Below, piece after piece: positions 15,593-47,200 of a DNA stretch of 64,000 bases. The DNA comes from an uncultured Acidobacteriota bacterium. GTDB taxonomy: Bacteria > Acidobacteriota > JAQAZP01. Within the stretch, counting starts at the first letter, position 1. The number at the start of each line of letters is the position of its first letter. Under the pieces are notes generated by a model that was not told the origin of the DNA, ran no database searches, and saw only the letters and a list, made by a program, of their open reading frames with translations. The stretch is taken from contig CAWIIB010000009.1 of the NCBI GenBank assembly GCA_963836075.1, positions 1,568,001-1,632,000 of the forward strand, written 5' to 3'. The position numbers were made by a program, and so were the translations under genes.

Positions 15593-15958
15593 CGGTGAAT
15601 CCTCCATCCCCTGAACTGCCCTGTCCCGCCCTGCAACATGCCGGAAATGAAAAGTCCGGCCGGTCGTTATTGTAACGCGCATTTTTCGGCCCGTCATCCT
15701 GGGGGAGAAAAGGCCGGTTTTGCTCAAGAAAGACGGCCGGACCGCCGATAGAAAAAGAGAATAAAGGGGTTTCTGACGGCAGCCGTTCATCTACCCGTCG
15801 GCGCCGCAGATCTGATCGTCCAACACATGTCCGACTCTCTGTGGACAAAGGATGTATGAAAAGAGCTGAATCTCGAGTGGTTTTCGGTTTAGCAGCCGGT
15901 GAGATGCACTCAAGCGATACCAGAGAAGCTTCTATCGATACCTGGAGGGCCTTCGACA

Positions 15959-18892
15959 ATGTGTCGTCCTGAATCCCACCGCGGCAGCCGGTTCGCCCGC
16001 CGTGCCGCGGTCTGCGTGTTCCTGTTCTTGTTCTCCTGCACGTTCGCCCACCTGCGGGCCGACGACCTGGTCACCGGCGACGGCCTCACCGTCCAGGTGG
16101 ACGCGGCAGGCCAGGTGACCGGGGTCCAGGTGGCGGGCGACGAGCTGCTCACCACCGGCGTCACCGGCGGCTTCTCCCTCACCGATTACACCGGCATCAA
16201 CGGGGTGAACATCCTGGTCAACTCAGGGTTCGAGGGCGGGTTCACCCACGTCCTCGACAACATCCACATCCCGGACAACTGGAACCTGCTCACCGCCACC
16301 GGTTCGGCGGACAACATCTCTCTTCAGCAGGAGACCGGCGGGCCCCACGAGGGCCTTAACGCTATCCACTTCGTCACCACCCAGTCCGGCGACGAAGCCG
16401 ACCCGCTGGAACCGGACGTGATCGAAATCGCCAGCGACACCTTTACCGTGGTCGGCGGCGTGACCTACTACTGCAGTTCGGTGTGCCGCAGCGACTTCGG
16501 CTATTCCCGGGATATCAACGGCTGGCCCTATGAAGCCGCCGTCTACCTCGACTGGTATGACGGGGACCAGGCGCTGATCTCCAGCGACAAGGTTTTCGAG
16601 GCGAGCCAGACGTTCTACAGCTGGACCCGGTTCACCGGCTGGGCGGAATCGCCCGAAAACGCCGCCAGCGCTTCGGTGCGCATCTATGTCAGCGGCAACT
16701 CCATCGATTATTCCCAGCCCATGGATGTCCTCTTCGACAACTTCCGCTGTTTCCGCGAACCCGCCGGCATCCGGGACATCCCGGTGAGCGGCACGGTGAC
16801 CAATAACGCCGGCGTGCTGAACATGCAGGCGGTGAACGTGGGTGGCCGAGGTCTCGACATATCGGCCCGGATGGAGGCCTTGACCGACCGCATCGAGATC
16901 AGCGGCCAGGTGACTCCCAGCGAGGGGAACGAAGGCCTGGACCGGGCGCTGGACCTCTCCTTCGTCCTGCCGGTGGATACCTCGTCCATGGAATGGTGGT
17001 GGTACGACAACCTGCATAAGAACTACCGCATCCGCGACCAGTATGTCTACGACGAGAACGTGGCGGCCGACGCCATCTCGCCGAACCTGAGGCTGAACGT
17101 CTACAACCTCTCCTGCATCACCGACGGGGACCACGTGCTGAACATCGCCCGCGAACCGGATCTGGTGCGGCCGTACTACGTGCAATACGAAGCCGAGGAC
17201 GACCTTTACATCATCCGCTTCCAGCTGGGGCTGGCAGCCCAGCGGGATCATGCCAGTTTCGATTTCGTCCTCTACACCTCGCTGCCCAACTGGGACATGC
17301 GCGGCGCGCTGCAGAAGTATTACGACATCTACACCGGCTACGGCCGGCTGCGCTCGGTGGGCGGTGAGCCCATGGCCGGGGGGATCAACGGCGGCCGGCC
17401 GGAATCGATCATGGGCAACGCCTATGAGACCAACCCCGAGGACTATGCTGTCCGTTACTACTTCAACAACAGTGCGGACGAGGCCGCCTACATGACCGAT
17501 GACCTGGGACTGCAGATGCTCTACTACACGCAGCCCTGGATGGTGATGTTCGAATCACCCGAGGATGATCCGCTGCCGCCATACCCCGAGTTCCGCAACG
17601 CGGTGAACGACCTGCCCAGCGTGTTCACCGAGGCGGAGATTATCGAGTCCTTCCCCTCGGACATCCTGATCAACATCAACGACACAACCAACCAGGACTA
17701 CCTGCTCTACCGCATCACCCACTACCCCGACCAGGCAGCTTTCCAGTACATGGCCTCGGTCTACATCAACACCGAGGACCAGACGCCCAGTTTCGGCAAC
17801 CGCTACCTCGACCACGTGGAGGATTACTACGAGTACATGGTGGAGACCATGCTCAGCCAGGAGTATCTCTACGGGGTGATGATGGACCTGTCGAACATCG
17901 GCGGCGCGACCCTGGACGGTTCGCGCAGCCGTTTCGCCTCGGCGGGCTACGACCTGACCTACAGCCCCACCACGTTCACGCCGGCGCTCTGGAACCTCAA
18001 CGCCTTCCAGAACTTCATGGGCGGCCTGCAGGAGCGCCTGGAGGCGAACCAGCCCGACCGCGACATCATCAGCGCCAACATGATCGAATACGGCTACCTC
18101 TTCTCGGCGGCCAACCACCTCGACACCTTCGGTTTCGAGTGCTCGCCCATCTCCGGCTGGAACTGGGGAAACAAGCACCTCGACTACCGCAAGATCGTCG
18201 CCGGCAGCAAACCCTGGTCGCCGGTGATCACTTACGCCGAGGCGCTGGCCTTTGACGAGCCGAGCAACGAGTATTACAAGGGGATGTGCGACATGTACAA
18301 TGTCGCCCTGCTCTACGCCTTCTACCTCGCCCCCAAGAAATTCGTCGAGGTGAACAACAAGGACCTGGAGGAACTGCGGAACGTCTCCGCCGGAGTGGTG
18401 CCGTTCATCGACCGGTTCAACGAACTGGGCTGGTACCCCTGCCACAAGGTGCTGCAGGTGGACGAGTCGGACGAGCCGGCCCCGGACAAGTACGTCATGA
18501 TCGAGCGCTACGGGCCGAGCACCACCTTCGACTCGGGCGAGACGGCGTACGTGGTGCTGCACTACAACCACACCAGTCTCAAGTCGTTCGACACCCTCTT
18601 CCCCCGGCCCACCACGCTGGGCGAGACCCGGGACTTCCGGATCAAGATCGACCTGGTGGAGATCGGGATGACCGAACCGGTGACACTGGAAGAGATGACC
18701 GCCACCATGCACGATATGGCGCCGGTGACCCCGCCCGACCTCAACCTGACCAACAACGGGGACGGCACGGTGACCATCACCGGCACGCTGGACTGGCGCG
18801 ACACACTGGTGCTCAAGCTGCAGCAGTACACCCCGGACACCATACCTCCGGCGGTGCCCACCGGTGTGCAGGCCGAGGTTCTGCTACCCTGA
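15959..18892 (+). CDS. Large secreted acidic protein with a CBM4/9-like domain and a possible glycoside hydrolase core
   Basis: GGAGG RBS, signal peptide, NILVNSGFE...VLFDNF module, C-terminal DTIPPAVPTGV. The function is inferred. Confidence 0.7.
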   Translation: MCRPESHRGSRFARRAAVCVFLFLFSCTFAHLRADDLVTGDGLTVQVDAAGQVTGVQVAGDELLTTGVTGGFSLTDYTGINGVNILVNSGFEGGFTHVLDNIHIPDNWNLLTATGSADNISLQQETGGPHEGLNAIHFVTTQSGDEADPLEPDVIEIASDTFTVVGGVTYYCSSVCRSDFGYSRDINGWPYEAAVYLDWYDGDQALISSDKVFEASQTFYSWTRFTGWAESPENAASASVRIYVSGNSIDYSQPMDVLFDNFRCFREPAGIRDIPVSGTVTNNAGVLNMQAVNVGGRGLDISARMEALTDRIEISGQVTPSEGNEGLDRALDLSFVLPVDTSSMEWWWYDNLHKNYRIRDQYVYDENVAADAISPNLRLNVYNLSCITDGDHVLNIAREPDLVRPYYVQYEAEDDLYIIRFQLGLAAQRDHASFDFVLYTSLPNWDMRGALQKYYDIYTGYGRLRSVGGEPMAGGINGGRPESIMGNAYETNPEDYAVRYYFNNSADEAAYMTDDLGLQMLYYTQPWMVMFESPEDDPLPPYPEFRNAVNDLPSVFTEAEIIESFPSDILININDTTNQDYLLYRITHYPDQAAFQYMASVYINTEDQTPSFGNRYLDHVEDYYEYMVETMLSQEYLYGVMMDLSNIGGATLDGSRSRFASAGYDLTYSPTTFTPALWNLNAFQNFMGGLQERLEANQPDRDIISANMIEYGYLFSAANHLDTFGFECSPISGWNWGNKHLDYRKIVAGSKPWSPVITYAEALAFDEPSNEYYKGMCDMYNVALLYAFYLAPKKFVEVNNKDLEELRNVSAGVVPFIDRFNELGWYPCHKVLQVDESDEPAPDKYVMIERYGPSTTFDSGETAYVVLHYNHTSLKSFDTLFPRPTTLGETRDFRIKIDLVEIGMTEPVTLEEMTATMHDMAPVTPPDLNLTNNGDGTVTITGTLDWRDTLVLKLQQYTPDTIPPAVPTGVQAEVLLP

Positions 18893-18976: not shown

Positions 18977-19991
18977 CTAGTATTCCCGCAGCAGCACGTC
19001 ACAGGCCAGGCGCACCTTGCGCAGCAGCCCGGCGAGGAAGCTGCCCTTGATCCCGGACCGCAGACCGACGATCAGTTTCCGCTGCAGGCGATACTTGTTC
19101 ATCTTCACCTTTTTCGGGCCGATATCGGTGAAGTTGGCCTCTTCCAGCGGTTTCCAGAGGGTTTCCGGGGGATATCCCCAGGTGCGCAGGTCATCGGGGT
19201 TCAGCTGGCCGATGATCTCTTCCATCAGCGAGAGCTTGGTCTGGTCGTAGGCCAGTTCCTCGGCCCACTTGTCGATGGAGCTGGTCACCGGCCGGGTGTG
19301 TTTCTTCACCCCCAGCGGGTCGCCCAGACCCTTGACCTCCGGCTGCCGCCGCCCGTATTCCACGCAGTTCTCCTCGAAGGGCAGGTCGAGGAAGTCGAGG
19401 ATCTCCTTGACCTTCTTCTCCGGATCCCGGGTGATGTCCTCGTAGCGCACGTGGATCATCGGCACCGGCTTCTCGCGGAGGAACCAGGCCATCACCGGCA
19501 CGTAGCGGTTGAGCAGCGGGTTGTACTCCTGGGCCAGCTGGTAATCGCCGTCGAAGAAGGAGTTGGCGAAGGAACTGAAGATGCCCAGCGGGTGCCGGGT
19601 GAGCACGATGAACCTGGCCCGGGGGTAGAGCTTGGCCAGGTAGGGCACCACCAGGCCGTAGGCCGGGGTCTTGTCCAGGAAGTAGCGCTTGCCGCTGGGC
19701 TCCAGCATCCGGCCGTACAGCGTGTCGGCATAGGCCCGGCAGGCGTCGTAGTAGTCGGTCTTCGGTGTTCGGCAGGTCGGCCACGAACTGCCTGGTCGAC
19801 TCGGCGGCCAGTACGTGGTCAAAGGGCGCCTTATCCACGTTGGCCCAGTAGCCCAGGTGGGCCAGCGGGGTCATCAGGTGCGGCTCCGGACGGCCGTAGA
19901 TCTCGGAATGGGACTCCAGCATCCGTTCCAGCATGGTGGACCCCGAGCGGGGGGTGCCGATGATGAAGAGCATCCTCTCTTGCATGGACAT
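18977..19991 (-). CDS. PAPS-dependent sulfotransferase, one frameshift near 19757
   Basis: 5'-PSB GTPRSGSTML, LDKTP, 3'-PB LTRHPLGIFSS, VRYED. Removing one C from GACCGAC joins the two ORFs. Confidence 0.9.
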
Positions 19992-25917: not shown

Positions 25918-27984
25918 CTACGCGGGCGGATGGCCGGTCGGGCCTCCGCCCGCTGTTTTGTCTTCAGGAGTCTCCAGGTCCACCCGGTGAAGCTCACCGG
26001 CGGGGAGGGTCTCGTTGTAGATCTGGCGGCGGCCCTCATCCATGATCAGCACATTGATCCCGCCGTCCACGCGCTGAACCTCCATGTCCCAGGTGGCACC
26101 AAAAGCCCTGACCCGGCTCAGGGCCATCCAGTCCCAGCTTGCGGGCAGCCGGGGGATGCAGTGGAACGAGCTCAGCCCGGTGGGCCGGATGCCGAACAGG
26201 CCTTCGGTGATGATCCGGCAGTAGAGCCCGCTCTCCGCCGAGAGGTGGCTCTGGTTGAACTCGGGGAAGGCCTCGATCACGTAGGGCACGTGGTCCCCCA
26301 GCAGCCGCCAGCGGGAAAAGGCGGCAAGTTTCTCCAGCGCCTGTTCGGTACCGCCGCTGGCGAATACGCCGCGCAGGGCGTAGAGGGTGGCGCGGTCCCA
26401 GACCGTTTCGGTGCCCGCCTCGGTGAGCAGCCCGGCCCGGGTCCAGAGGCGGGGCGAGAAGAGCGCATTGATTGTTCCCTCGGCCCGGTCAAAGATGCCC
26501 ACGGTGAGCGGGATGCAGATCCAGCTGCGCAGGATCTCGTTGCCCGCGAAATAACGATAGGTTGAATATCCTTCCACTTCGGCGGCAAACTGGTCTTCGA
26601 TTGCCGTCCGCAGCGTGGCGGCCCGGTTCCGAAACTCGCCGGCATCGTCCTTCCCCAGTTCCTCGGCCAGCCAGGCGGCGGAGAGCAGGGCGTCATAGCA
26701 GAGGCAGGAGGTGCAGAGGTTGGCCTCGCCGGCGGGGAAGCGGCCCTCCAGTTCGTCGGTGTCCGAGGCGATGATGCCTTCGGTGGTGGTCTGCCGACGG
26801 CAATACTCCAGGCACCAGCTGATCAGCGGCCACAATTCCTCGGCCCAGGCCCGGTTCCCCGAAGCCAGGGCGAAACGGCCGGCGCCGTAGGCGATCATTG
26901 CCGCGTCGCCGCGGTCCCCGGCGCCGTTCCAGAACCCGCGGCCCTCGGCGATGATCGAGCTGGGAAGCGGTTTGTACTCCGGGTTCATATACGCGGCGAA
27001 GTGGCGAAAGGCGTTCATCGCGCTCTCGTTGCCCGCGGTATTGCCGAGAAAGGGGAAGAAGGGGTTGATGTATTCGGCCTGGTCGTTGGCCCAGATGGCG
27101 GCCAGATACTTGTTGTATCCCCCCGGCCCGTGCATCAGCCCCCCGCGGGTGGCGAAGATGCTCTCCGTCCCCCGCAGCTTGGAAAAGGCGAACAGCCGGT
27201 TGATCACTCTGTCCGGTGTCTTCAGCTCCAGATCGATCTCGATACTGCGCACGAACTGTTCCCTGGCGGCCAGTTCGGCATCCGCGTCACAGGAGAAGGG
27301 TGCATCGTCTTTTTTTCGCGCCGATCGGACGATGGCCCAGCGGATGCTCTCTCCCGGGGCCACCCGGCGGCTCGCTTCCCCCACCAGGAACTGGTCCACG
27401 ATATAGGAGCCGAACAGCCCCGCCTCGGCTGTGGTGCTGTGGGAGACCCTCCAGCCGGGGACGGTGATCTGCAGGGTCCGGGTGCCGGTGTTTTCCAGAA
27501 CCCAGTGATCGATGACTGCCGGAGAGTGCGGGCTGGGGAAGATGGTCTGCTCGGTCCACACGCCCTCCCGGTGATCGCTGGAGACGGTCATCAGGCCGTG
27601 AATCAGCACTTGCTGGACCGCACCGCCGGAGAGGGGCTGCCCATCCACCAGTGGCCGGGGATCCATCCCGTCGTTCAGTTCCCTGGACAGGCTGGCGTGG
27701 GTGTCGTCGGGCAGGGTGCGCAGCATGGGCCAGCGAACCACCCTGGTGGCCTGAAAACTGCCCCCGGCGTCCACCTCCCACTCCAGGATCAGGTCCACGC
27801 TGCGGCCGGACATGGCCATGTGGTCCTGGTGGGGCAGTGTTTCGTCCGGTTCGATATCCCAGTGAATTCTCCCTAGATGGTCGGTGTGCCAGCGGTGGGA
27901 CGATTCTGCTCCATCCGCGGAGCCGGCATGGACGGGCAGGGAGAGCAGGAGGAAGGCCAGTATTGCCGTGGTCAGCTTTCTCAT
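25918..27984 (-). CDS. Secreted six-hairpin (alpha/alpha)6 glycosidase-like protein
   Basis: Signal peptide, AAIWANDQAEY, GDRGDAAM, SDTDELEGRFP, LSAESGLY. A TATAAT lies at 28034-28029 upstream. The exact GH family is not assignable by eye. Confidence 0.75.
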   Translation of the reverse strand: MRKLTTAILAFLLLSLPVHAGSADGAESSHRWHTDHLGRIHWDIEPDETLPHQDHMAMSGRSVDLILEWEVDAGGSFQATRVVRWPMLRTLPDDTHASLSRELNDGMDPRPLVDGQPLSGGAVQQVLIHGLMTVSSDHREGVWTEQTIFPSPHSPAVIDHWVLENTGTRTLQITVPGWRVSHSTTAEAGLFGSYIVDQFLVGEASRRVAPGESIRWAIVRSARKKDDAPFSCDADAELAAREQFVRSIEIDLELKTPDRVINRLFAFSKLRGTESIFATRGGLMHGPGGYNKYLAAIWANDQAEYINPFFPFLGNTAGNESAMNAFRHFAAYMNPEYKPLPSSIIAEGRGFWNGAGDRGDAAMIAYGAGRFALASGNRAWAEELWPLISWCLEYCRRQTTTEGIIASDTDELEGRFPAGEANLCTSCLCYDALLSAAWLAEELGKDDAGEFRNRAATLRTAIEDQFAAEVEGYSTYRYFAGNEILRSWICIPLTVGIFDRAEGTINALFSPRLWTRAGLLTEAGTETVWDRATLYALRGVFASGGTEQALEKLAAFSRWRLLGDHVPYVIEAFPEFNQSHLSAESGLYCRIITEGLFGIRPTGLSSFHCIPRLPASWDWMALSRVRAFGATWDMEVQRVDGGINVLIMDEGRRQIYNETLPAGELHRVDLETPEDKTAGGGPTGHPPA
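25922..25959 (+). terminator. Intrinsic terminator after the vWA gene
   Basis: GCGGGCGGA...TCCGCCCGC stem followed by TGTTTT. It overlaps the 3' end of the convergent gene. Confidence 0.65.
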
Positions 27985-28173
27985 GGTCAACTACCTCGAT
28001 GTGGATGGTGAGCTGTTGTCACTCCCCCATTATACGGCCTCAATGGCGTATGGCAGGAATGTGCGACTAAACAGCTCCTGTCCCTCAGGTAGCTTGTCCC
28101 TTTTTGCGGTCATGCATTTTTCACACTGTATCGGGCTTCACCCGGATTGCCGGTGATCCTGCCTGTTGCGGAG

Positions 28174-28757: not shown

Positions 28758-29337
28758 ATGTTCAAATCACGACTGTTTCTCGTTGCGGCGGCCCTGCTTT
28801 TCATGCTGGTCCTCTGCGGGACGCAGGAGGCCCAGGCCCAGAAGATGCCCGGCGCGTTCTCCTCGGGCGAGTGGTTCGGATCGATCAATCCAAATGCTCA
28901 TACGGCGTACTATCTACCCGTACTATGACCAGTTTCGGTTTCCTTGGGATTATTTCTATCCACGCTTCGGTCCCCGTGTCCATGGCCGCCGCTACGCCGG
29001 GGGATACTGGTACCCCTGGACCTACCGCTGGGGCCGCTATGATGTTCCCAATTACACCTGGTGGAGCTTTGGTGAGGGCTTTGTCGATGAATACGGGACC
29101 GGCGGGATCTGGACGGCCAGTGATCCGCGGAAGACAACGGAACTGAAAGCCATCCAGACCGTCGAGCGGGAGATACAGACGAGGCGGGTGACCAGAGAGG
29201 CCACGCGGATCACACAGCGGCGGGGCATGGGATCGTCCGGTATATCGATGGGCCGGGGGTCATCCAGCGGGTCGTCGGGCGGCGGAAGTTCAATCGGGTC
29301 GTCGGGCGGTGGCGGCGGCCGCAGCGGCAAGAAGTAG
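28758..29337 (+). CDS. Secreted Tyr/Trp-rich hypothetical protein with a Gly/Ser tail, one frameshift near 28914
   Basis: GGAGGT RBS and signal peptide ending AQA-Q. Removing one base in TATCTAC joins it to YPYYDQFRFPWDYFYP...SSGGGGGRSGKK. Confidence 0.65.
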
Positions 29338-29347
29338 TCCAGACGCG

Positions 29348-29396
29348 AAAAACGGCGCGGGAGTAGGGCCAATACGGCCTCCACCCGCGCCTTGTT
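29348..29396. terminator. Probable bidirectional terminator
   Basis: GGCGCGGG...CCCGCGCC stem with an A tract on the left and TTGTT on the right, between convergent genes. Confidence 0.65.
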
Positions 29397-29407
29397 GTGT
29401 ACCCCAT

Positions 29408-30712
29408 TCAACCCACCGCGTCGAGGATCTGCTGCTGCAGGGCGATGTTGTCCCGGTGGCCGGAGAAGCGGGCGGTGACCTTGCCCCGCACCGGGAAGCC
29501 GAGGAGGTAGAAGTCGCCGATGATGTCGAGGATCTTGTGCCGCACGAACTCGTCGGGGAAGCGGAGCTCGGTGTTGATCACGTTGTCTTCGCCGACGAGG
29601 ATGAAGTTGTCCAGCCGGCCGCCGGAGCCCAGGCCCAGTTCGTTCATCATCTTCAGGTCGCGCATGAAACCGAAGGTGCGGGCCGGCGCGATCTGTTCGC
29701 GGTAGGCTTCGGCGTTCTCCATCCGAAACTCGCAGAACTGGTCGCCCACCGGCGGCGGGTAGCTCAGCTGGTAGGAGACGGAGAAACCGTCATCCGGCTC
29801 GATGGCCAGCATCTTCTTCCCGTCGTCCTCGCCCACCTGGTAGCGTTTGTCGATAACCAGTTCCATCCGGGGGATACCCTGGTCCTCGATGCCCACCTTT
29901 TCCAGCTCGTGGCAGAACTCCAGGGCCGAGCCGTCGAGCACCGGGATCTCGCCGTGGACCTTGATCAGCAGGTTGGTGATTCCGCAGGCGTGGAGCGCCG
30001 AGAGCAGGTGCTCCACGGTGCGGATGCCCTCGCCGTGGCCGGTGAGGGTCGTGGCATATTCGGTGTTGCCGGCGGCGGAGATGTGGGCCGGGATCACCGT
30101 CCCGCCGGGCAGGGTGATGAAGTGGATGCCGCTGTCCGGGGGCAGCGGCTGGATCACCATGCCGGTGCGGCTGCCCGAGTGGAGGCCAAGGCCGTAGATC
30201 GCCTTGCTGGTGCTGATGGTCCGCTGCGGAACGTCGGTCTGTTGCAGCAGGGGGAGTCGCGGCGGCGGGCTCACCCGCACCTCGTCGTCGGTGCGGGCCT
30301 TGGCCAGTTCCAGCACCGGGTTCGACCGCAGGCTGGCCCGGTCCGGTTTGTCCCGCAGCGCGCCCACCACCGCGTCCATCACCTGGTCGTAGGAGAGCGG
30401 TTTCTCCAGGTAGTCGCAGGCGCCCATCTTGATTGCCCGCACCGCGGTGGGGGTGGTGCCGTGGCCCGACATCATGATCACCGCCGCCCCGGCGTCCAGT
30501 TCCAGCAGGGCGCGCAGGGTTTCCAGCCCGTCCCGGTCGGGGAGCCAGATGTCGAGGAAGACCACGTCGGGCAGGTGCTGCTGGTAGAGGGTCAGCGCCT
30601 CCTCGCCGCGGCCGGTGGTCACCGTACGGTATCCCTCGTCCTTGAGAATGTTGGACAGCGAAACAAGGATTCCCGGCTCGTCGTCCACGATGAGAACCAG
30701 TTTCTTTTTCAT
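29408..30712 (-). CDS. lpxC: Response-regulator receiver domain fused to UDP-3-O-acyl-GlcNAc deacetylase
   Basis: REC: LIVDDE, FLDIWLP, MMSGHG, YLEKP. LpxC: QRTI...GLGLHSG, TVEHLLSAL, EIPVLDGSA, IAPARTFGF, LRFPDEFVRHKILDIIGD, SGH. One uninterrupted frame. Confidence 0.93.
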   Translation of the reverse strand: MKKKLVLIVDDEPGILVSLSNILKDEGYRTVTTGRGEEALTLYQQHLPDVVFLDIWLPDRDGLETLRALLELDAGAAVIMMSGHGTTPTAVRAIKMGACDYLEKPLSYDQVMDAVVGALRDKPDRASLRSNPVLELAKARTDDEVRVSPPPRLPLLQQTDVPQRTISTSKAIYGLGLHSGSRTGMVIQPLPPDSGIHFITLPGGTVIPAHISAAGNTEYATTLTGHGEGIRTVEHLLSALHACGITNLLIKVHGEIPVLDGSALEFCHELEKVGIEDQGIPRMELVIDKRYQVGEDDGKKMLAIEPDDGFSVSYQLSYPPPVGDQFCEFRMENAEAYREQIAPARTFGFMRDLKMMNELGLGSGGRLDNFILVGEDNVINTELRFPDEFVRHKILDIIGDFYLLGFPVRGKVTARFSGHRDNIALQQQILDAVG

Positions 30713-30880
30713 GAACACAGTTTGCTACTTTGGGCCGCGCCGGTCAAGGGGGCTGCTGTCGGGGCCTGGTTTCCGCCACACCCGCCGTCCGTTGTATGAT
30801 GAGCCGTGTCAGCGGATCCCAGTCCGGCCTTCCGGAAACCAACCGTTCCCGGCCGGCCCAACCCCAGCGGAGAGCCTCCA

Positions 30881-33055
30881 ATGCGCAAGCCAACGTCACT
30901 TCTCCTCCTTGTCCTGTCGGGTATTCTCGCGATCCCCGTCCCCGCGGTTTTCGCCGGTGACCGGCCGGCCTATCCGGAAACCGACCGGGTGGACCAGGTG
31001 GAGATCTACCACGGCACCGAGGTGGCCGATCCCTACCGCTGGCTGGAGGACGACGTGCGCACCAGCGATGCCGTGGCCGGGTGGGTGGAAGCGCAGAACA
31101 GGCTCACCTTCTCCTGGCTGGAGGCGATCCCCCAGCGGCCGGCCATCCGCTCCCGGCTCACCGAACTGTGGAACTACGAGCGGTTCGGTCTGCCGGCGCG
31201 GCACGGCGGTGTCTACTACTTCGAGAAGAACGACGGCCTGCAGAACCAGGACGTACTCTATGCCGTGGACAGACTCGACGGGAAGCCGCGGGTGCTCATC
31301 GACCCCAATGCCTGGTCCGGCGACGGCACGGTCACCCTGGGCAGCACCTCCTTCTCCGACGACGGCCGCTACATGGCCTGGTCGGTGGCCGAGGCCGGTT
31401 CGGACTGGAACCGCTGGCGCATCCGCGATCTGCGGACCGGCAAGGACCTGCCCGAGGAACTGACCTGGATCAAGTGGTCCGCGGTTTCCTGGACCCTGGA
31501 CGGTCTGGGCTTTTTCTACAGCCGCTTCGACGAGCCGGCCGAGGGGGCAACCTTCCAGCAGTCAAACCTCAATCAGAAGATCTTCTACCACCGGCTGGGC
31601 ACGTCCCAGGCCGACGACACTCTGGTCTACCAGCGGCCCGACCAGCCGCAGTGGACCTTCTGGGCCACGGTGACCGAGGACGGCCGCTACCTGGTGATCA
31701 CTGTCTGGGAGGCTGGGGAGAAGAACCTGGTCTTTGTCCGGGACCTGGCCCGGCCCTACGCCATGCCGCAACCGTTGATCGGCGGCTGGGACGCCAGCTA
31801 CGGCTTTCTGGGCAACGATGGCCCTCTGCTCTACTTCCGCACCGACCTGGACGCGCCGCGGGGCCGGGTGGTGGCGGTGGACTTGCGGCACCCCGAGCGC
31901 AGCGCCTGGAAAACGCTGATTCCCCAGACCGAGGACACGCTCCAGCGGGTGGGTCTGGTGGGCAACTTATTCTTTGCCCGCTACCTGCGCCACGCGTCGA
32001 GCCGGGTGCGGCTCTTCAGCACCGCCGGCGAGCACGTGCGTGACGTGGAGCTGCCCGGCCTGGGGTCGGTTGGCGGGTTTTTCGGCCGGCGGAGTGATAC
32101 CGAAACCTTCTACCGCTTCTCCAGCTTCAATATGCCGCCGACCATTTACCGTTACGACCTGGCCAGCGGCAAGAGCGCGCTGTTCCGCCGGGCCCAGACC
32201 TCCTTTGACCCCGCTCAGTTCGAAGTGAGCCAGGTGTTCTACGCCTCCAAGGACGGCACCAGGGTGCCGATGTTCCTGGCCCACAGGAAGGGGCTGAAGA
32301 AGGACGGGTCGAACCCCGTGCTGCTATACGGCTACGGCGGTTTCAACGCATCCATGACTCCGTCGTTCTCGGCCGCGAAAATCGCCTGGATGGAGATGGG
32401 CGGCATTTTCGCCCTGGCCAACATCCGCGGCGGCGGCGAGTATGGCCGGGAGTGGCACGAGGGGGCCACCAAGCTGAAGCGGCAGAACGCCTTCGACGAT
32501 TTCATCGCCGCTGCGGAGTGGCTGATCGATGAGCGCTACACCCGTACGGAAAAACTGGCGGTGATGGGCGGCAGCAACGGGGGGCTGCTGGTGGGGGCGG
32601 TGATGACCCAGCGGCCGGACCTCTTCGGCGCCTGCCTGCCCGAGGTGGGGGTGATGGACATGCTCCGTTTCCACAAGTTCACCGCCGGGCGCTACTGGAC
32701 CGACGATTTCGGGTCGTCAGACGACCCGGAGCAGTTCAAGGCGCTGCTGGCCTACTCCCCCTATCACAACATCAAGGACGGCACCGCCTACCCGCCCACC
32801 CTGGTCACCACCGCCGACACCGACGACCGGGTGGTGCCGGGGCACTCGTTCAAATTCACCGCCGCCATGCAGCGGGCCCAGGACGGCCCGGCGCCGGTGC
32901 TGATCCGCATCGAGACCCGGGCCGGCCACGGCGGGGGCAAGCCCACGGACAAGGCCATCGAGGAGGTGACCGACCAGTGGTCCTTCCTCGCGGCCATCCT
33001 GGGGATGGAGGTGCCGCCGGCCTGGGGCAAACATGTCATCCGCGTCCAGGAGTAG
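30881..33055 (+). CDS. Prolyl oligopeptidase (S9A), secreted
   Basis: Signal peptide, DPYRWLE, YGYGGF, GGSNGG, DDRV, AGHG. Confidence 0.95.
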   Translation: MRKPTSLLLLVLSGILAIPVPAVFAGDRPAYPETDRVDQVEIYHGTEVADPYRWLEDDVRTSDAVAGWVEAQNRLTFSWLEAIPQRPAIRSRLTELWNYERFGLPARHGGVYYFEKNDGLQNQDVLYAVDRLDGKPRVLIDPNAWSGDGTVTLGSTSFSDDGRYMAWSVAEAGSDWNRWRIRDLRTGKDLPEELTWIKWSAVSWTLDGLGFFYSRFDEPAEGATFQQSNLNQKIFYHRLGTSQADDTLVYQRPDQPQWTFWATVTEDGRYLVITVWEAGEKNLVFVRDLARPYAMPQPLIGGWDASYGFLGNDGPLLYFRTDLDAPRGRVVAVDLRHPERSAWKTLIPQTEDTLQRVGLVGNLFFARYLRHASSRVRLFSTAGEHVRDVELPGLGSVGGFFGRRSDTETFYRFSSFNMPPTIYRYDLASGKSALFRRAQTSFDPAQFEVSQVFYASKDGTRVPMFLAHRKGLKKDGSNPVLLYGYGGFNASMTPSFSAAKIAWMEMGGIFALANIRGGGEYGREWHEGATKLKRQNAFDDFIAAAEWLIDERYTRTEKLAVMGGSNGGLLVGAVMTQRPDLFGACLPEVGVMDMLRFHKFTAGRYWTDDFGSSDDPEQFKALLAYSPYHNIKDGTAYPPTLVTTADTDDRVVPGHSFKFTAAMQRAQDGPAPVLIRIETRAGHGGGKPTDKAIEEVTDQWSFLAAILGMEVPPAWGKHVIRVQE

Positions 33056-44206: not shown

Positions 44207-47200
44207 AAGACGGTAAAAAAACAGAGAACACACGAGGCGCCGAAGCCGCTCTGCGGGAAGGGGAGCGTGCCGCCCGGGCCTTGATCGACGCCCAGCACGA
44301 ATCGGCATTCCTGCTGGAGCTGGACGGCACCCTGGTCACGATCAACGAGACGGCGGCTCGGCGGATGGGCGGCAGCCCGGAGGAACTGGTGGGCCGGAAT
44401 ATCGCCGAACTCATGCCCCCCGACGTCCAGGAGCAGCGGATGGCCGTGGCCCGGGAGGTGGCGCGCACCGGCAAAGCGGTGCGTACAGTGGATTTTCGTG
44501 ACGGTATCTGGTTTGATTCCACCATCTACCCCGTGTTTGACGAAAAAGGCCAGGTGGTGCGCTGGGCCGTTTTTGCCCGTGATGTCACCGTACGCAAAAC
44601 CGCCGAACTCAACCTGAAGCGGAGAGAGGCGGTGCTCCAGGCCATCAGTTTTACCGCCAAGAGCCTGCTGGAACCCGGCGCAATAGAGGACCGTCTTCCG
44701 GAAATTCTCCGCCTGCTGGGTGAGGCCCAGCAGGTGAGCCGGGCCTGGGTGATCAGGATCCGGCCCGGGGCCGACGGTGAGATCTTCGCCCGGCTGACGC
44801 ACCAGTGGTGTGCGCCAGGTATCGAATCGACACTGGGCCGACCTGATTACCAGGAGTTCCCGCAGATCGCGTCGGGCTATGGGCGCTGGGTGGATTTGTT
44901 CTCTGCGGGGGAGGCGGTTCACGGGCTGGTGAGCGAGTTTCCGGAGAACGAACAGCCGTTGCTGACGCGGATCAACATCAAGTCCCTGGCCGCCTTCCCC
45001 ATCATGGTGGGCGGATCCTGGTGGGGCGCCATCGGATTTGACGAGGATGTGCAGGACCGGACGTTCACCGCGGCCGAGCTGGATACCCTGGCCACGGCGG
45101 CCGAGATCCTCGGTGCCGCCATCAACCGGCGGGAGACGGAGCAGCTCCTCTGGCTCCAGCGGGACGTGGCCTTTATCCTGGCCTCCGCCGGGGGCATGGG
45201 GCAGACCATGGGCCGCGTACTGGACATCCTGGCCGCCTTCGACTGGGTGGACGCCGCCGGCCTCTACCTGGCAGACGAGGAGACGGGCGTGCTCCAGCTG
45301 GTGGTCCACCAGGGCGTCGGGCCGGACTTCGTGAAAGCGGCTTCTCCGGTCAACCCCGGAACCGAAGAGTATGACCTGATGTCCCCGTCCGAGCCGCGCT
45401 ATCTCACCATCGAAAATCTTCCTCCTTCCGAGCCGATAACGCCCCTGCAGCAGAGCGGTCTCAAGGCCATGGCCTACCTGCCGGCCTGGTCGGACGGCAA
45501 GCTCGCCGCGGTGATGGTGCTGGGATCCAGGCAGCAAGAGGTGGTCCCCCCGGCGCTGATGGACAGCCTCGATATCGTTTGCTCCCAGGTGGGGGATCAC
45601 ATCGGCCGTCTGCGGGCCGAGGATGCCATGCGGCGGTCGGAGGAGAAGTTCCGCGCGCTGGCCGAGGAGTCGATCCTCGGTATCGCCCTCTTCCGGGATC
45701 TCCGCTTTGTTTTTGCCAACATCGCTTTTGCACGGATTTTCGGGTACACCGCGGAAGAGTTGATGGCCATGGAGCCGAAAAAAATCCGCAAGCACATCCA
45801 CCCCGAGGACCGCAAGATGGTCTTCGATCGGATGGCGGCCCGCCAGGCGGGGGAGGACGTACCCCAGCAATACGAGTTCAGGATAATCCGGCGGGACGGT
45901 TCCGAGGGTTGCGTGGAGACGTCGGCCAACCGGGTTCTTCACGGTGGCCGACCGGCGGTGCAGTCGATGATTACCGACATCACCGAGCGGAAAATGGCCG
46001 AGCGCGCCCTGAGGCAGTCGGAGAGCAAGTTCCGCACCCTGATCGAAAAATCGATCCAGGGGCTGATGGTGATCCAGGACGCGAAGATAGTGCTGACCAA
46101 CGAGGCGTTCGCACGGATGATCGGCTACACCGTGGATGAACTGCTCGCCCTGCCGCCGGGAGCCATTGACTGCACCATTCACCCGGATGACCGGGACGAG
46201 ATCATGGCCCGGTTGCGCAAGAGGCTGGAGGGCGGGGAAGAACCGAGGCACTACAAGGCCCGGGCACTGCACAAGGACGGTCACACGGTCTGGGTGGACG
46301 TGGTGAGTGACATCACCGACTATGGCGGGCGGCAGGCCACCCAGGTGCTGACCGTGGACATCACCGAACAGAAAAAACTGGAGGACCGTATCCTCCAGGC
46401 GCACAAGATGGAAGCGGTGGGCCGGCTGGCCGGCGGAGTGGCCCACGACTTCAACAACCTGCTCACCGCCATCCGCGGCTATGGCAAATCGCTGGCCCGC
46501 AAGGTCGAGCAGGCGAACCCGCTGCGCGAGGAGGTTGACGAGATCTGTTTCGCCGCCGACCGTGCCGCCTCGCTGACCCGGCAGCTGCTCTCCTTCAGCC
46601 GCAAACAGGTGACCCGGCCCGAACTTGTGCATCTGAACCAGGTGGTGATCGACATGGAGGGTCTGCTGCGCCGCCTGATCGGCCGGCGGATCGAGGTGGC
46701 GACCAGCCTGGGCAAGGGGCTGGGAGCGGTGAGGGCCGACCGCAGCCAGGTGGAACAGGTCCTGATGAACCTGGTGGTCAACGCCCGGGACGCCATGGAC
46801 GGCCGCGGCCGGCTGGAGCTCAGAACCGAGCAGGTGGAACTGGATCGCTACGCGGTGGCCGAGGCGCCGGGGGCCGCGGCCGGGCCCCATGTCCGGCTGT
46901 CGGTCACCGACAGCGGGGTGGGGTTGAACAAAGACGACCTGCCCCATCTCTTCGAGCCGTTTTTCAGCACCAAGGGGCCGGGCCGGGGTACCGGTCTGGG
47001 CCTGTCGGTGGTCTACGGGATCGTGCAGCAGCACCACGGCCTGGTGGAAGTGGAGAGTGAGCCGGGCCGGGGCACACGCTTTGACATCTACCTGCCGGTG
47101 GCGCTGGACCAAGACGCGGGGGACGTGGCCGCCACCCCGGCGGCCCGGCTGGAAGGACGGGGAGAGAGACTGCTCCTGGTGGAGGATGAGGAAGCCGTCC

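Follow-up and report, generated by a model that had tools for sequence, protein, structure and literature searches.

The only LpxC of an uncultured Acidobacteriota bacterium carries an NtrX-type receiver: a candidate phospho-switch in lipid A synthesis

The deacetylase LpxC, which commits UDP-3-O-acyl-GlcNAc to lipid A, determines how much flux enters this pathway. It is known to be controlled by proteolysis (FtsH/LapB/YejM, Lon) and by transcription, and neither the FtsH/LapB/YejM route nor the transcriptional control of the stand-alone enzyme involves a covalently attached switch. Here, we describe a gene of an uncultured Acidobacteriota bacterium in which a receiver (REC) domain of the two-component type precedes a complete LpxC in a single open reading frame (ORF). 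The gene is located on the minus strand of a DNA stretch of 64,000 nucleotides, which was analysed as a whole and is referred to below as the window.

[quoted passage not shown] In R. sphaeroides lacking NtrYX, lpxC mRNA was 8.8-fold up and more lipopolysaccharide (LPS) was found, and the accessible part of that study reports that the region ahead of lpxC has no NtrX site (Lemmer et al. 2020, PMC7240162). In D. vulgaris, lpxC is the single mapped target of the regulator DVU2934; the same source, as far as its accessible text goes, notes DVU2934 orthologues in Acidobacterium capsulatum and reports that, in S. fumaroxidans, an lpxC gene immediately precedes the orthologous operon (Rajeev et al. 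2011, PMC3333781). The DUF4390 protein PlrP has been described, on genetic evidence, as the periplasmic third component of PlrSR, a system of the NtrYX family, in a paper whose accessible text names neither LpxC nor Acidobacteria (J Bacteriol 2026, PMC13001219). No description of a receiver–LpxC or NtrX–LpxC protein was found in the accessible text of the literature searched, subscription journals and domain-architecture databases being outside its scope, and the words "fusion", "fused", and "response regulator" are absent from the accessible text of the lipid A regulation review (PMC12444477).

The DVU2934 system, a two-component regulator dedicated to lpxC, matches the lpxC–ntrY–ntrX clusters and the sigma54-type elements that are presented below for unfused members of the phylum; the control there, however, is transcriptional, and the regulator and the enzyme are separate proteins. 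DVU2931/DVU2934 are taken as putative orthologues of NtrY and the NtrY-adjacent regulators. Meanwhile, the window protein, a single chain in which a flexible linker connects a receiver at the N-terminus to an enzyme at the C-terminus, has the layout of the CheB methylesterase, the PleD/WspR diguanylate cyclases, and the RpfG phosphodiesterase, from which it differs in that its enzyme is a lipid A biosynthetic deacetylase and not a signalling enzyme. By analogy, the CheB-type scheme, in which the state of the receiver gates catalysis, is the likely model for REC–LpxC. Another natural LpxC fusion is LpxC–FabZ (NCBIfam NF009667; P0210, P0217, P0235, and P0268 among our representatives), in which the FabZ partner is a C-terminal pathway enzyme and the LpxC domains group with the stand-alone ones in the tree described below; the window protein scored 194 bits against NF009667, whose cut-off is 465.

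On balance, we favour a reading in which the control of lpxC has moved from NtrX/sigma54 transcription to the direct phosphorylation of the enzyme by NtrY. According to this prediction, NtrY, tuned by the periplasmic DUF4390 protein, would phosphorylate Asp54 of the receiver, and the phosphorylation state of the receiver would set LpxC activity. Envelope signals would thereby act on lipid A flux at the enzyme, not via sigma54 transcription, the route of the relatives, or FtsH/LapB proteolysis, that of E. coli. The proposed two-component gating of LpxC is strengthened by the descent of the receiver from the partner of NtrY, by the unfused lpxC–ntrY–ntrX cluster with its sigma54-type promoter, and by the orphan NtrY of the fused genomes.

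The coordinates of the gene, its parts, and the two unlinked genes that matter for its interpretation are collected in Table 1. The uninterrupted minus-strand ORF spans 29408..30718 and gives 436 aa when read from a GTG at 30716-30718, which lies in frame, two codons 5' of the ATG at 30710-30712. The ATG is the likely start codon, giving 434 aa, because close homologues have matching lengths (~430 aa). Residues are numbered below on the 434-aa form, except for the ranges of the Pfam receiver and LpxC matches, which refer to the 436-aa form.

Table 1. Features of the fused gene and of two related genes elsewhere in the source genome (window positions, unless a coordinate of the source genome, G000, is given)
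Feature	Position	Strand	Extent	Basis or remark
REC–LpxC gene	29408..30712	(-)	434 codons + TGA stop (29408-29410)	ORF list, translation, codon check
Receiver (REC)	30368..30697	(-)	residues 6-115	Pfam PF00072 + AlphaFold2 secondary structure
Asp54 codon, predicted phospho-acceptor	30551..30553	(-)		within LDIWLP, signature common to NtrY-adjacent regulators
Linker	30227..30367	(-)	residues ~116-162 (~47 aa)	poorly conserved
LpxC domain	29423..30226	(-)	residues 163-430	Pfam PF03331, TIGR00325
NtrY	G000:C9:1523160-1525565			72 kb from fused gene, outside window
NtrX-like sigma54 activator	G000:C1:909070-910443		full-length	beside HtrA/DegP-type protease gene

A preliminary description, made from the sequence without database searches, had placed an intact REC domain and an intact LpxC within one ORF. 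The Pfam matches, the codon check, and the absence of an internal stop bore this out, and every motif named there (DD, FLDIW, MSGHG, EKP, TVEH, HKILD, and GH) was found in the checked codons. The Response_reg profile matched residues 8-117 (E 1.5e-28; 99.6 bits, cut-off 30.2), and all five active-site residues of a receiver were present, namely D10 and D11 (VDD), D54 (FLDIW), S82 (MSGHG), and K104 (EKP). The supposed likeness of the receiver to those of NtrX/NtrC-type regulators also held, the best receiver-type NCBIfam match being NtrX, in its REC part only (94.1 bits). In the AlphaFold2 model, the receiver forms five strand-helix repeats, and its helix alpha5 extends to residue 127. The linker begins with the end of alpha5 and continues through a short helix (132-141) into an extended stretch, with a predicted local distance difference test (pLDDT) score below 50 at residues 136-140. 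No AAA+ or helix-turn-helix (HTH) remnant was detectable in the linker and no Pfam family matched between REC and LpxC; the window protein is therefore not a member of the NtrC/NtrX enhancer-binding family, which is defined by a sigma54 AAA+ domain and a C-terminal HTH_8.

The LpxC half matched its Pfam profile over almost the entire length (residues 165-432, profile positions 1-267 of 268; E 1.1e-81; 274.7 bits, cut-off 27) and scored 232.1 bits with the NCBIfam lpxC equivalog TIGR00325 (cut-off 187.25). By the residue roles known from the E. coli and P. aeruginosa enzymes, its predicted Zn ligands are H235, H392, and D396 and its catalytic residues are E234 and H419, with T346, K393, and D400 also present; E234 and H235 lie in TVEH, H392, K393, D396, and D400 in HKILDIIGD, and H419 in GH. 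The key residues align with those of P. aeruginosa LpxC (E 7.9e-48). The AlphaFold2 model of the fusion protein had a pLDDT of 91.0 and a predicted template modelling (pTM) score of 0.86, and Foldseek superimposed its LpxC half on solved LpxC structures with target-normalised TM scores of 0.85-0.95 and a root-mean-square deviation of 1.5-2.3 Å. The full-length profile match, the Zn and catalytic residues, and the fold all identify this half as LpxC. It thus shares the catalytic domain, Zn ligands, base/acid, and fold of the stand-alone enzymes of E. coli, P. aeruginosa, and Aquifex aeolicus (35-36% identity), whereas the N-terminal receiver and the linker are additions to them and the LpxC domain itself belongs to a separate, REC-bearing clade. 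No solved chain spanning REC and LpxC was found by Foldseek (best query-normalised TM score 0.60). A homodimer prediction with two copies (alignment A1) gave a score of 0.01 (mark 0.42, without controls), from which we draw no conclusion.

The linker region contains no stop codon, and contigs assembled in three independent studies run through it with neither insertions nor deletions (X1 30216-30419; X2 30180-30289 and 30260-30800; X3 30155-30485), so that the continuity of the frame on which the preliminary description depended was upheld. The sole indels listed in these contigs lie at 29346-29378, 3' of the stop codon. The sequencing runs with most window DNA share at most 0.44 of the sampled words, and no habitat is assigned from them. 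A scan of 29150-31000 for consensus sigma70 promoters and terminators returned 0 and 0. In one metatranscriptome run, only a contig of 250 bases was found on 29435-29684, with 9 differences, which is no proof that the gene is transcribed.

The source genome (6.23 Mb, 10 contigs, 94.7% complete) contains a single PF03331 match, the fused gene; there is thus no second, stand-alone lpxC by this profile search, and lpxA and lpxB are present on another contig. Being the sole LpxC match beside lpxA and lpxB, the fused gene is predicted to encode the UDP-3-O-acyl-GlcNAc deacetylase of this bacterium. The fused gene was also the only LpxC match in all 10 other fused genomes tested, and each of 71 genomes sampled evenly from the phylum had exactly one LpxC match. 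When 401 genomes of the phylum were searched, all of them gave an LpxC match, and the full-length fusion was found in 26, belonging to 11 coded families; those without the fusion matched the LpxC part only. (The tallies over 401 genomes, here and for NtrY below, include one unpublished genome, G151.) In a collection of 5.8 billion proteins, both domains were present in 120 of the 120 best matches, at 67-92% identity, and the named ones were labelled as plain LpxC from MAGs (metagenome-assembled genomes) of Acidobacteriota or Thermoanaerobaculia. The suggestion that such fusions may already sit in MAG annotations was therefore justified, and a lack of the fusion in relatives, which would have counted against the preliminary description, was not observed.

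The MAG labels on the named fusion records were Thermoanaerobaculia, Candidatus Multivoradales, Holophagae, and Acidobacteriota. A divergent group of fusions, at 44-46% identity, is labelled Candidatus Aminicenantes, several of the bins being obviously mislabelled. Records named "uncultured Clostridia", "Patescibacteria group", and "Omnitrophota" contain an Aminicenantes-type REC-lpxC, and their labels look wrong; at the mislabelled-looking loci (L182-L184, L193, L201, L214, L217-L219, L225, L205, and L200) the gene is 63-100% identical to an Acidobacteriota genome of the GTDB set. Two record scans gave no cultured organism among the full-length fusion matches. The class of the source genome holds just 3 genomes, all of them fused, so a survey at class level adds nothing beyond the genus.

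These data also bear on the possibility that assembly or gene calling joined a response-regulator gene to lpxC artificially. The genome is a draft in 10 contigs, and in four long-read MAG records (L046, L076, L077, and L078) the fused gene matches only partly within one frame, the broken frames being probably frameshifts from sequencing errors and not real breaks. In spite of this, the occurrence of the same architecture in the best database matches, in the 26 genomes, and in 81 distinct full-length sequences, together with the independent contigs that cross the linker, makes such an artefact extremely improbable.

Among the 81 distinct full-length homologues (42-92% identity), the five active-site residues of the receiver (D10, D11, D54, S82, and K104) are invariant, and so are W56, G83, H84, G85, and P105 of the receiver and E234, H235, H392, K393, D396, D400, H419, and T346 of LpxC. 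D54 was kept in 76 of the 77 short-form sequences, distant representatives included.

The conservation of the phospho-acceptor would fit equally well a receiver that governs how much LpxC is present rather than how fast it works, in which case phosphorylation would expose or hide a degradation signal or recruit a protease. Such control would be a phospho-dependent variant of the proteolysis through FtsH/LapB that is known for the E. coli enzyme. The accessible text of the review cited above gives proteolysis as the main control of LpxC in the organisms studied (PMC12444477). The window LpxC is without the C-terminal tail of the E. coli enzyme, its alignment ending near residue 284 of the 312-residue P. 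aeruginosa chain, so that control of its amount would need some other turnover handle; the sequence offers no pointer to a degron or an adaptor, and no protease gene is linked among the 93 fused loci compared. The pTM of the two-domain model would also be more typical of an intramolecular regulatory contact. We consider control of the amount unlikely. The zinc-ribbon family of LapB (PF18073) had no match in the source genome, a result that says little because this family matches Gram-positive controls too.

The origin of the receiver was traced through longer relatives. When 1.84 billion cluster representatives were searched exhaustively, 1,589 matched at E <= 1e-30, and the best 150 of them were examined. 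Among these 150 were many REC–LpxC proteins of ~420-460 aa and 15 proteins of 650-736 aa with the Pfam order REC, Sigma54_activat, AAA_lid, and LpxC, five of which additionally contain HTH_8. Intermediates among the same 150 were a REC–HTH_8–LpxC protein of 491 aa and REC–LpxC proteins of 483-505 aa. The AAA+ modules of the long forms look decayed at the level of their motifs: GAFTGA and the Walker B "DE" were found in none of the 15, and Walker A in 13. The MAG labels of the long forms were Deltaproteobacteria, Thermodesulfobacteriota, and Nitrospirae.

The tree built from 139 LpxC domains (by a quick search, with midpoint rooting and no bootstraps, the representatives being picked by similarity to the fused query) has a branch with 100% support in the Shimodaira–Hasegawa-like approximate likelihood-ratio test (SH-aLRT) that parts the REC-bearing domains from the stand-alone and LpxC–FabZ ones. 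On the REC side are 42 short, 15 long, 3 intermediate, 7 N-truncated, and 4 short ~285-aa rows; on the other side are 68 rows, of which 62 are stand-alone, 5 are LpxC–FabZ, and 1 is other. At two or more points of this tree, short forms are nested among the long ones with 100% support.

A tree of 75 receivers, which rests on a short alignment and in which many inner forks are unresolved, has a split with 95% support that brings 27 of the 29 short, all 15 long, and all 3 intermediate forms together with the six NtrY-adjacent regulators. This NtrX side also holds 3 receivers of the source genome, 19 others from that genome being on the opposite side. The signature LD[IV]WLP...SGHG...KPLS is common to the LpxC-linked receivers and all six NtrY-adjacent regulators, and it occurs once in the six-frame translation of the source genome, on LpxC. 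Judged by this split and this signature, the LpxC-linked receiver is a descendant of the NtrX lineage, the partner regulator of NtrY. Three distant REC–LpxC proteins (P0183, P0187, and P0189) are 31-33% identical to the window protein, and in each of them Glu occupies the position of the first acidic Asp; P0183 and P0187 have receivers that cluster among other receiver types, outside the NtrX lineage. By their sequences, these three may represent an independent receiver–LpxC fusion.

At two of the four long-form loci (L108 and L109), the REC–AAA–LpxC gene lies 14 bp behind the gene for an NtrY-type kinase (744 aa; NtrY_N-HAMP-PAS-HisKA-HATPase_c), which a DUF4390 gene precedes; the other two have no adjacent kinase. 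In a Nitrospirae MAG (L111, 8039-10799), the long-form gene is followed by purN, a 2-thiouracil desulfurase-like gene, lolA, and a gene for an RseP-type M50 protease, the last two being envelope-related.

The source genome has one full-length NtrY orthologue (802 aa; E 3e-142 to the long-form-adjacent kinase), whose NtrY_N match is just above the cut-off. It forms a DUF4390–NtrY operon without a regulator behind it. A 207-aa ORF located behind NtrY was considered as an NtrX remnant and rejected, having neither a Pfam match nor similarity to the long-form protein. In all seven fused genomes examined, NtrY is an orphan: lpxC does not precede it, and ntrX does not follow it. Compared with NtrY/NtrX and PlrS/PlrR–PlrP, the window protein is thus alike in the grouping and signature of its receiver, and its genome retains the DUF4390–NtrY operon; it differs in that its output is an enzyme, without AAA+ or HTH, and in that the kinase gene is unlinked.

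The persistence of this intact operon, without a regulator of its own, in seven of seven fused genomes also argues against a receiver that no longer signals, being a relic, a structural or solubility module, or a responder to acetyl phosphate that has no dedicated kinase. The lack of a linked kinase and the loss of the acceptor Asp in one homologue, P0149, would agree with such a receiver, and so would the decay or loss of the AAA+ and HTH modules, since it means that this lineage tolerates the loss of regulator parts. The ten receiver residues, however, are invariant down to 42% identity while the linker drifts freely, which is hard to explain without selection on phosphorylation chemistry. 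We therefore regard a non-signalling receiver as distinctly improbable.

The arrangement of the same genes in genomes without the fusion was determined using the even sample of the phylum, which consists of 6 fused and 65 unfused genomes. Of the 65 unfused genomes, 19, which belong to 13 coded families, have lpxC and ntrY side by side on one strand, with lpxC upstream; this adjacency was seen in none of the 6 fused genomes. In the remaining unfused genomes, the two genes are on different contigs (30) or far apart or on opposite strands (10), or there is no NtrY match at E <= 1e-65 (6). Two genomes of the even sample, G024 (adjacent) and G048 (not adjacent), are unpublished, and leaving them out gives a count of 18 of 63; neither these two nor G151 is fused. 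A count of 31 adjacencies in 66, taken from top-150 tables, was biased and is superseded by the even sample.

Eight unfused loci were chosen for adjacency. Five of them show the order lpxC–(DUF4390)–ntrY–ntrX, a sixth has ntrY–ntrX with lpxC 77 bp upstream, and the other two are without ntrX behind ntrY, so that ntrX follows ntrY in 6/8. BLAST with the DUF4390 protein of the source genome detected a counterpart at 4/8 unfused and 3/7 fused loci. GAFTGA or GSFTGA was present in five of the six NtrY-adjacent regulators, which indicates that they are true sigma54 activators, unlike the NtrX of alphaproteobacteria, which is without GAFTGA.

A sigma54-type -24/-12 element (pattern GG[CT]A[CT]-N5-6-TGC[AT]; background 0.02 per region) was found 36-73 nt upstream of the start of the LpxC domain in 16 of 28 unfused genomes. 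It was present in 12/16 of those in which lpxC adjoins ntrY and in 4/12 elsewhere. Before the fused gene, the element was seen at 1 of 89 loci and was absent in the window. This comparison of sequences shows that the fused genomes lost both the sigma54-type element and the operon linkage.

Several observations weigh against the direct control of the fused enzyme by NtrY. No kinase gene stands beside the fused gene in the window, and no recurring kinase cluster was found among the 93 fused loci compared; the pairing with NtrY therefore follows from descent rather than linkage, and the adjacency to ntrY that marks the NtrY/NtrX system was seen only at L108 and L109. NtrY-like matches occur in 388 of the 401 phylum genomes, and being near-universal, NtrY does not separate the fused genomes from the unfused ones. 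The adjacency of lpxC and ntrY holds in just 19 of the 65 unfused genomes sampled, and the sigma54-type element is missing in 12 of the 28 unfused genomes scanned, at loci that were chosen and not random. P0149 has Asn at the phospho-acceptor position, so phosphorylation is dispensable in at least one lineage. As far as the accessible sources go, alphaproteobacterial NtrYX acts on lpxC negatively and indirectly; the sign of the control is therefore not conserved and cannot be read from sequence. Finally, the full-length NtrX-like activator encoded on another contig of the source genome (C1 in Table 1) is 52-53% identical to the NtrY-adjacent regulators, and in REC scores against these it reaches 121 bits, the LpxC-linked receiver 119, and the next one 97. 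This activator could be the partner of NtrY instead of, or beside, REC–LpxC.

The C1 activator has LDIKMP and KPLE where the signature has LDIWLP and KPLS. In helix alpha1, the LpxC-linked receivers share on average 8.3 of 17 residues with the NtrY-adjacent regulators, compared with 5.7 for the C1 activator. Because of the receiver tree, the LD[IV]WLP and KPLS motifs, the closer alpha1, and the uniqueness of the signature in the source genome, we infer that REC–LpxC has inherited the place of NtrY's partner; both regulators may act together in a branched pathway. The C1 activator is part of a cluster (L161, G000:C1:909070-917307) that contains an sCache/HisKA kinase gene, ligA, a sigma54 activator gene, the HtrA/DegP-type protease gene, and the gene of the activator itself, in which GSFTGA is intact; this cluster could represent a module for envelope stress and, possibly, another arm of NtrY signalling.

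Another reading is that information flows in the reverse direction, LpxC reporting the occupancy of its substrate or product and the receiver serving as a phosphate sink that tunes NtrY signalling to a separate NtrX-like activator. Phosphate-sink receivers are a known device, and the C1 activator, which is full-length, could be the transcriptional arm of a branched pathway. Yet it is without the signature residues that the NtrY-adjacent and LpxC-linked receivers have in common, and the fused gene is the only LpxC of the cell with every catalytic residue kept, so that its primary role would be catalysis. Reverse flow is, in our judgement, very improbable.

Under direct phosphorylation by NtrY, the sign of the control is close to a toss-up. 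By analogy with the activating logic of the ancestral sigma54 regulator and with the CheB-type receiver-enzyme fusions, we marginally prefer an unphosphorylated receiver that restrains LpxC and a phosphorylation that releases it. If the reading is true, it would add a third control of LpxC, a reversible, kinase-driven switch attached covalently to the only LpxC of the cell. The family also serves as a natural "Rosetta stone" that ties the poorly understood NtrY/NtrX (PlrSR) envelope system and DUF4390 directly to lipid A synthesis, far beyond the alphaproteobacteria, where an indirect link was seen. In living genomes, it preserves the successive stages by which a regulator can become joined to the very enzyme whose gene it controlled and afterwards be trimmed to its receiver. 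More tentatively, and with rather less confidence than in the reading itself, DUF4390–NtrY could be an ancient, cross-phylum monitor of the outer membrane or LPS, with LpxC as its dedicated target. In many Acidobacteriota, it would act on an lpxC promoter through an NtrX-type sigma54 activator encoded in the same operon; in several lineages, the fusion of this regulator to LpxC and its later reduction to the receiver would have short-circuited the path, giving the first case in which the committed enzyme of lipid A synthesis is a response regulator.

The annotation of the window agrees with the preliminary description in showing no lipid A genes as neighbours: no lpxA, fabZ, or ftsZ lies near the fused gene. 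Its neighbours are a divergent prolyl oligopeptidase gene (30806-33055) and small ORFs without a Pfam match. Across the 93 fused loci, the neighbour cluster that recurred most often was an E1 dehydrogenase/transketolase-type gene (18 loci), and further recurring neighbours were ApbE, GNAT, GH20, and glycogen synthase.

The only kinase match in the window is a histidine-kinase core at ~46396-47103 on the plus strand (G000:C9:1614396-1615103), which is located inside a 1116-aa open frame and is weakly NtrY-like (E 2.5e-19). A sulfotransferase gene (Sulfotransfer_3, 18977-19991, minus strand) is divided between two overlapping ORFs, with the profile matched in its N-terminal part at 19191-19991 and in its C-terminal part at 18977-19822, which suggests a frameshift, a pseudogene, or an assembly error. 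Two long ORFs, at 15899-18892 on the plus strand (997 aa) and at 25918-27990 on the minus strand (690 aa), are putative genes in high-GC DNA, with no Pfam match at E <= 0.001.

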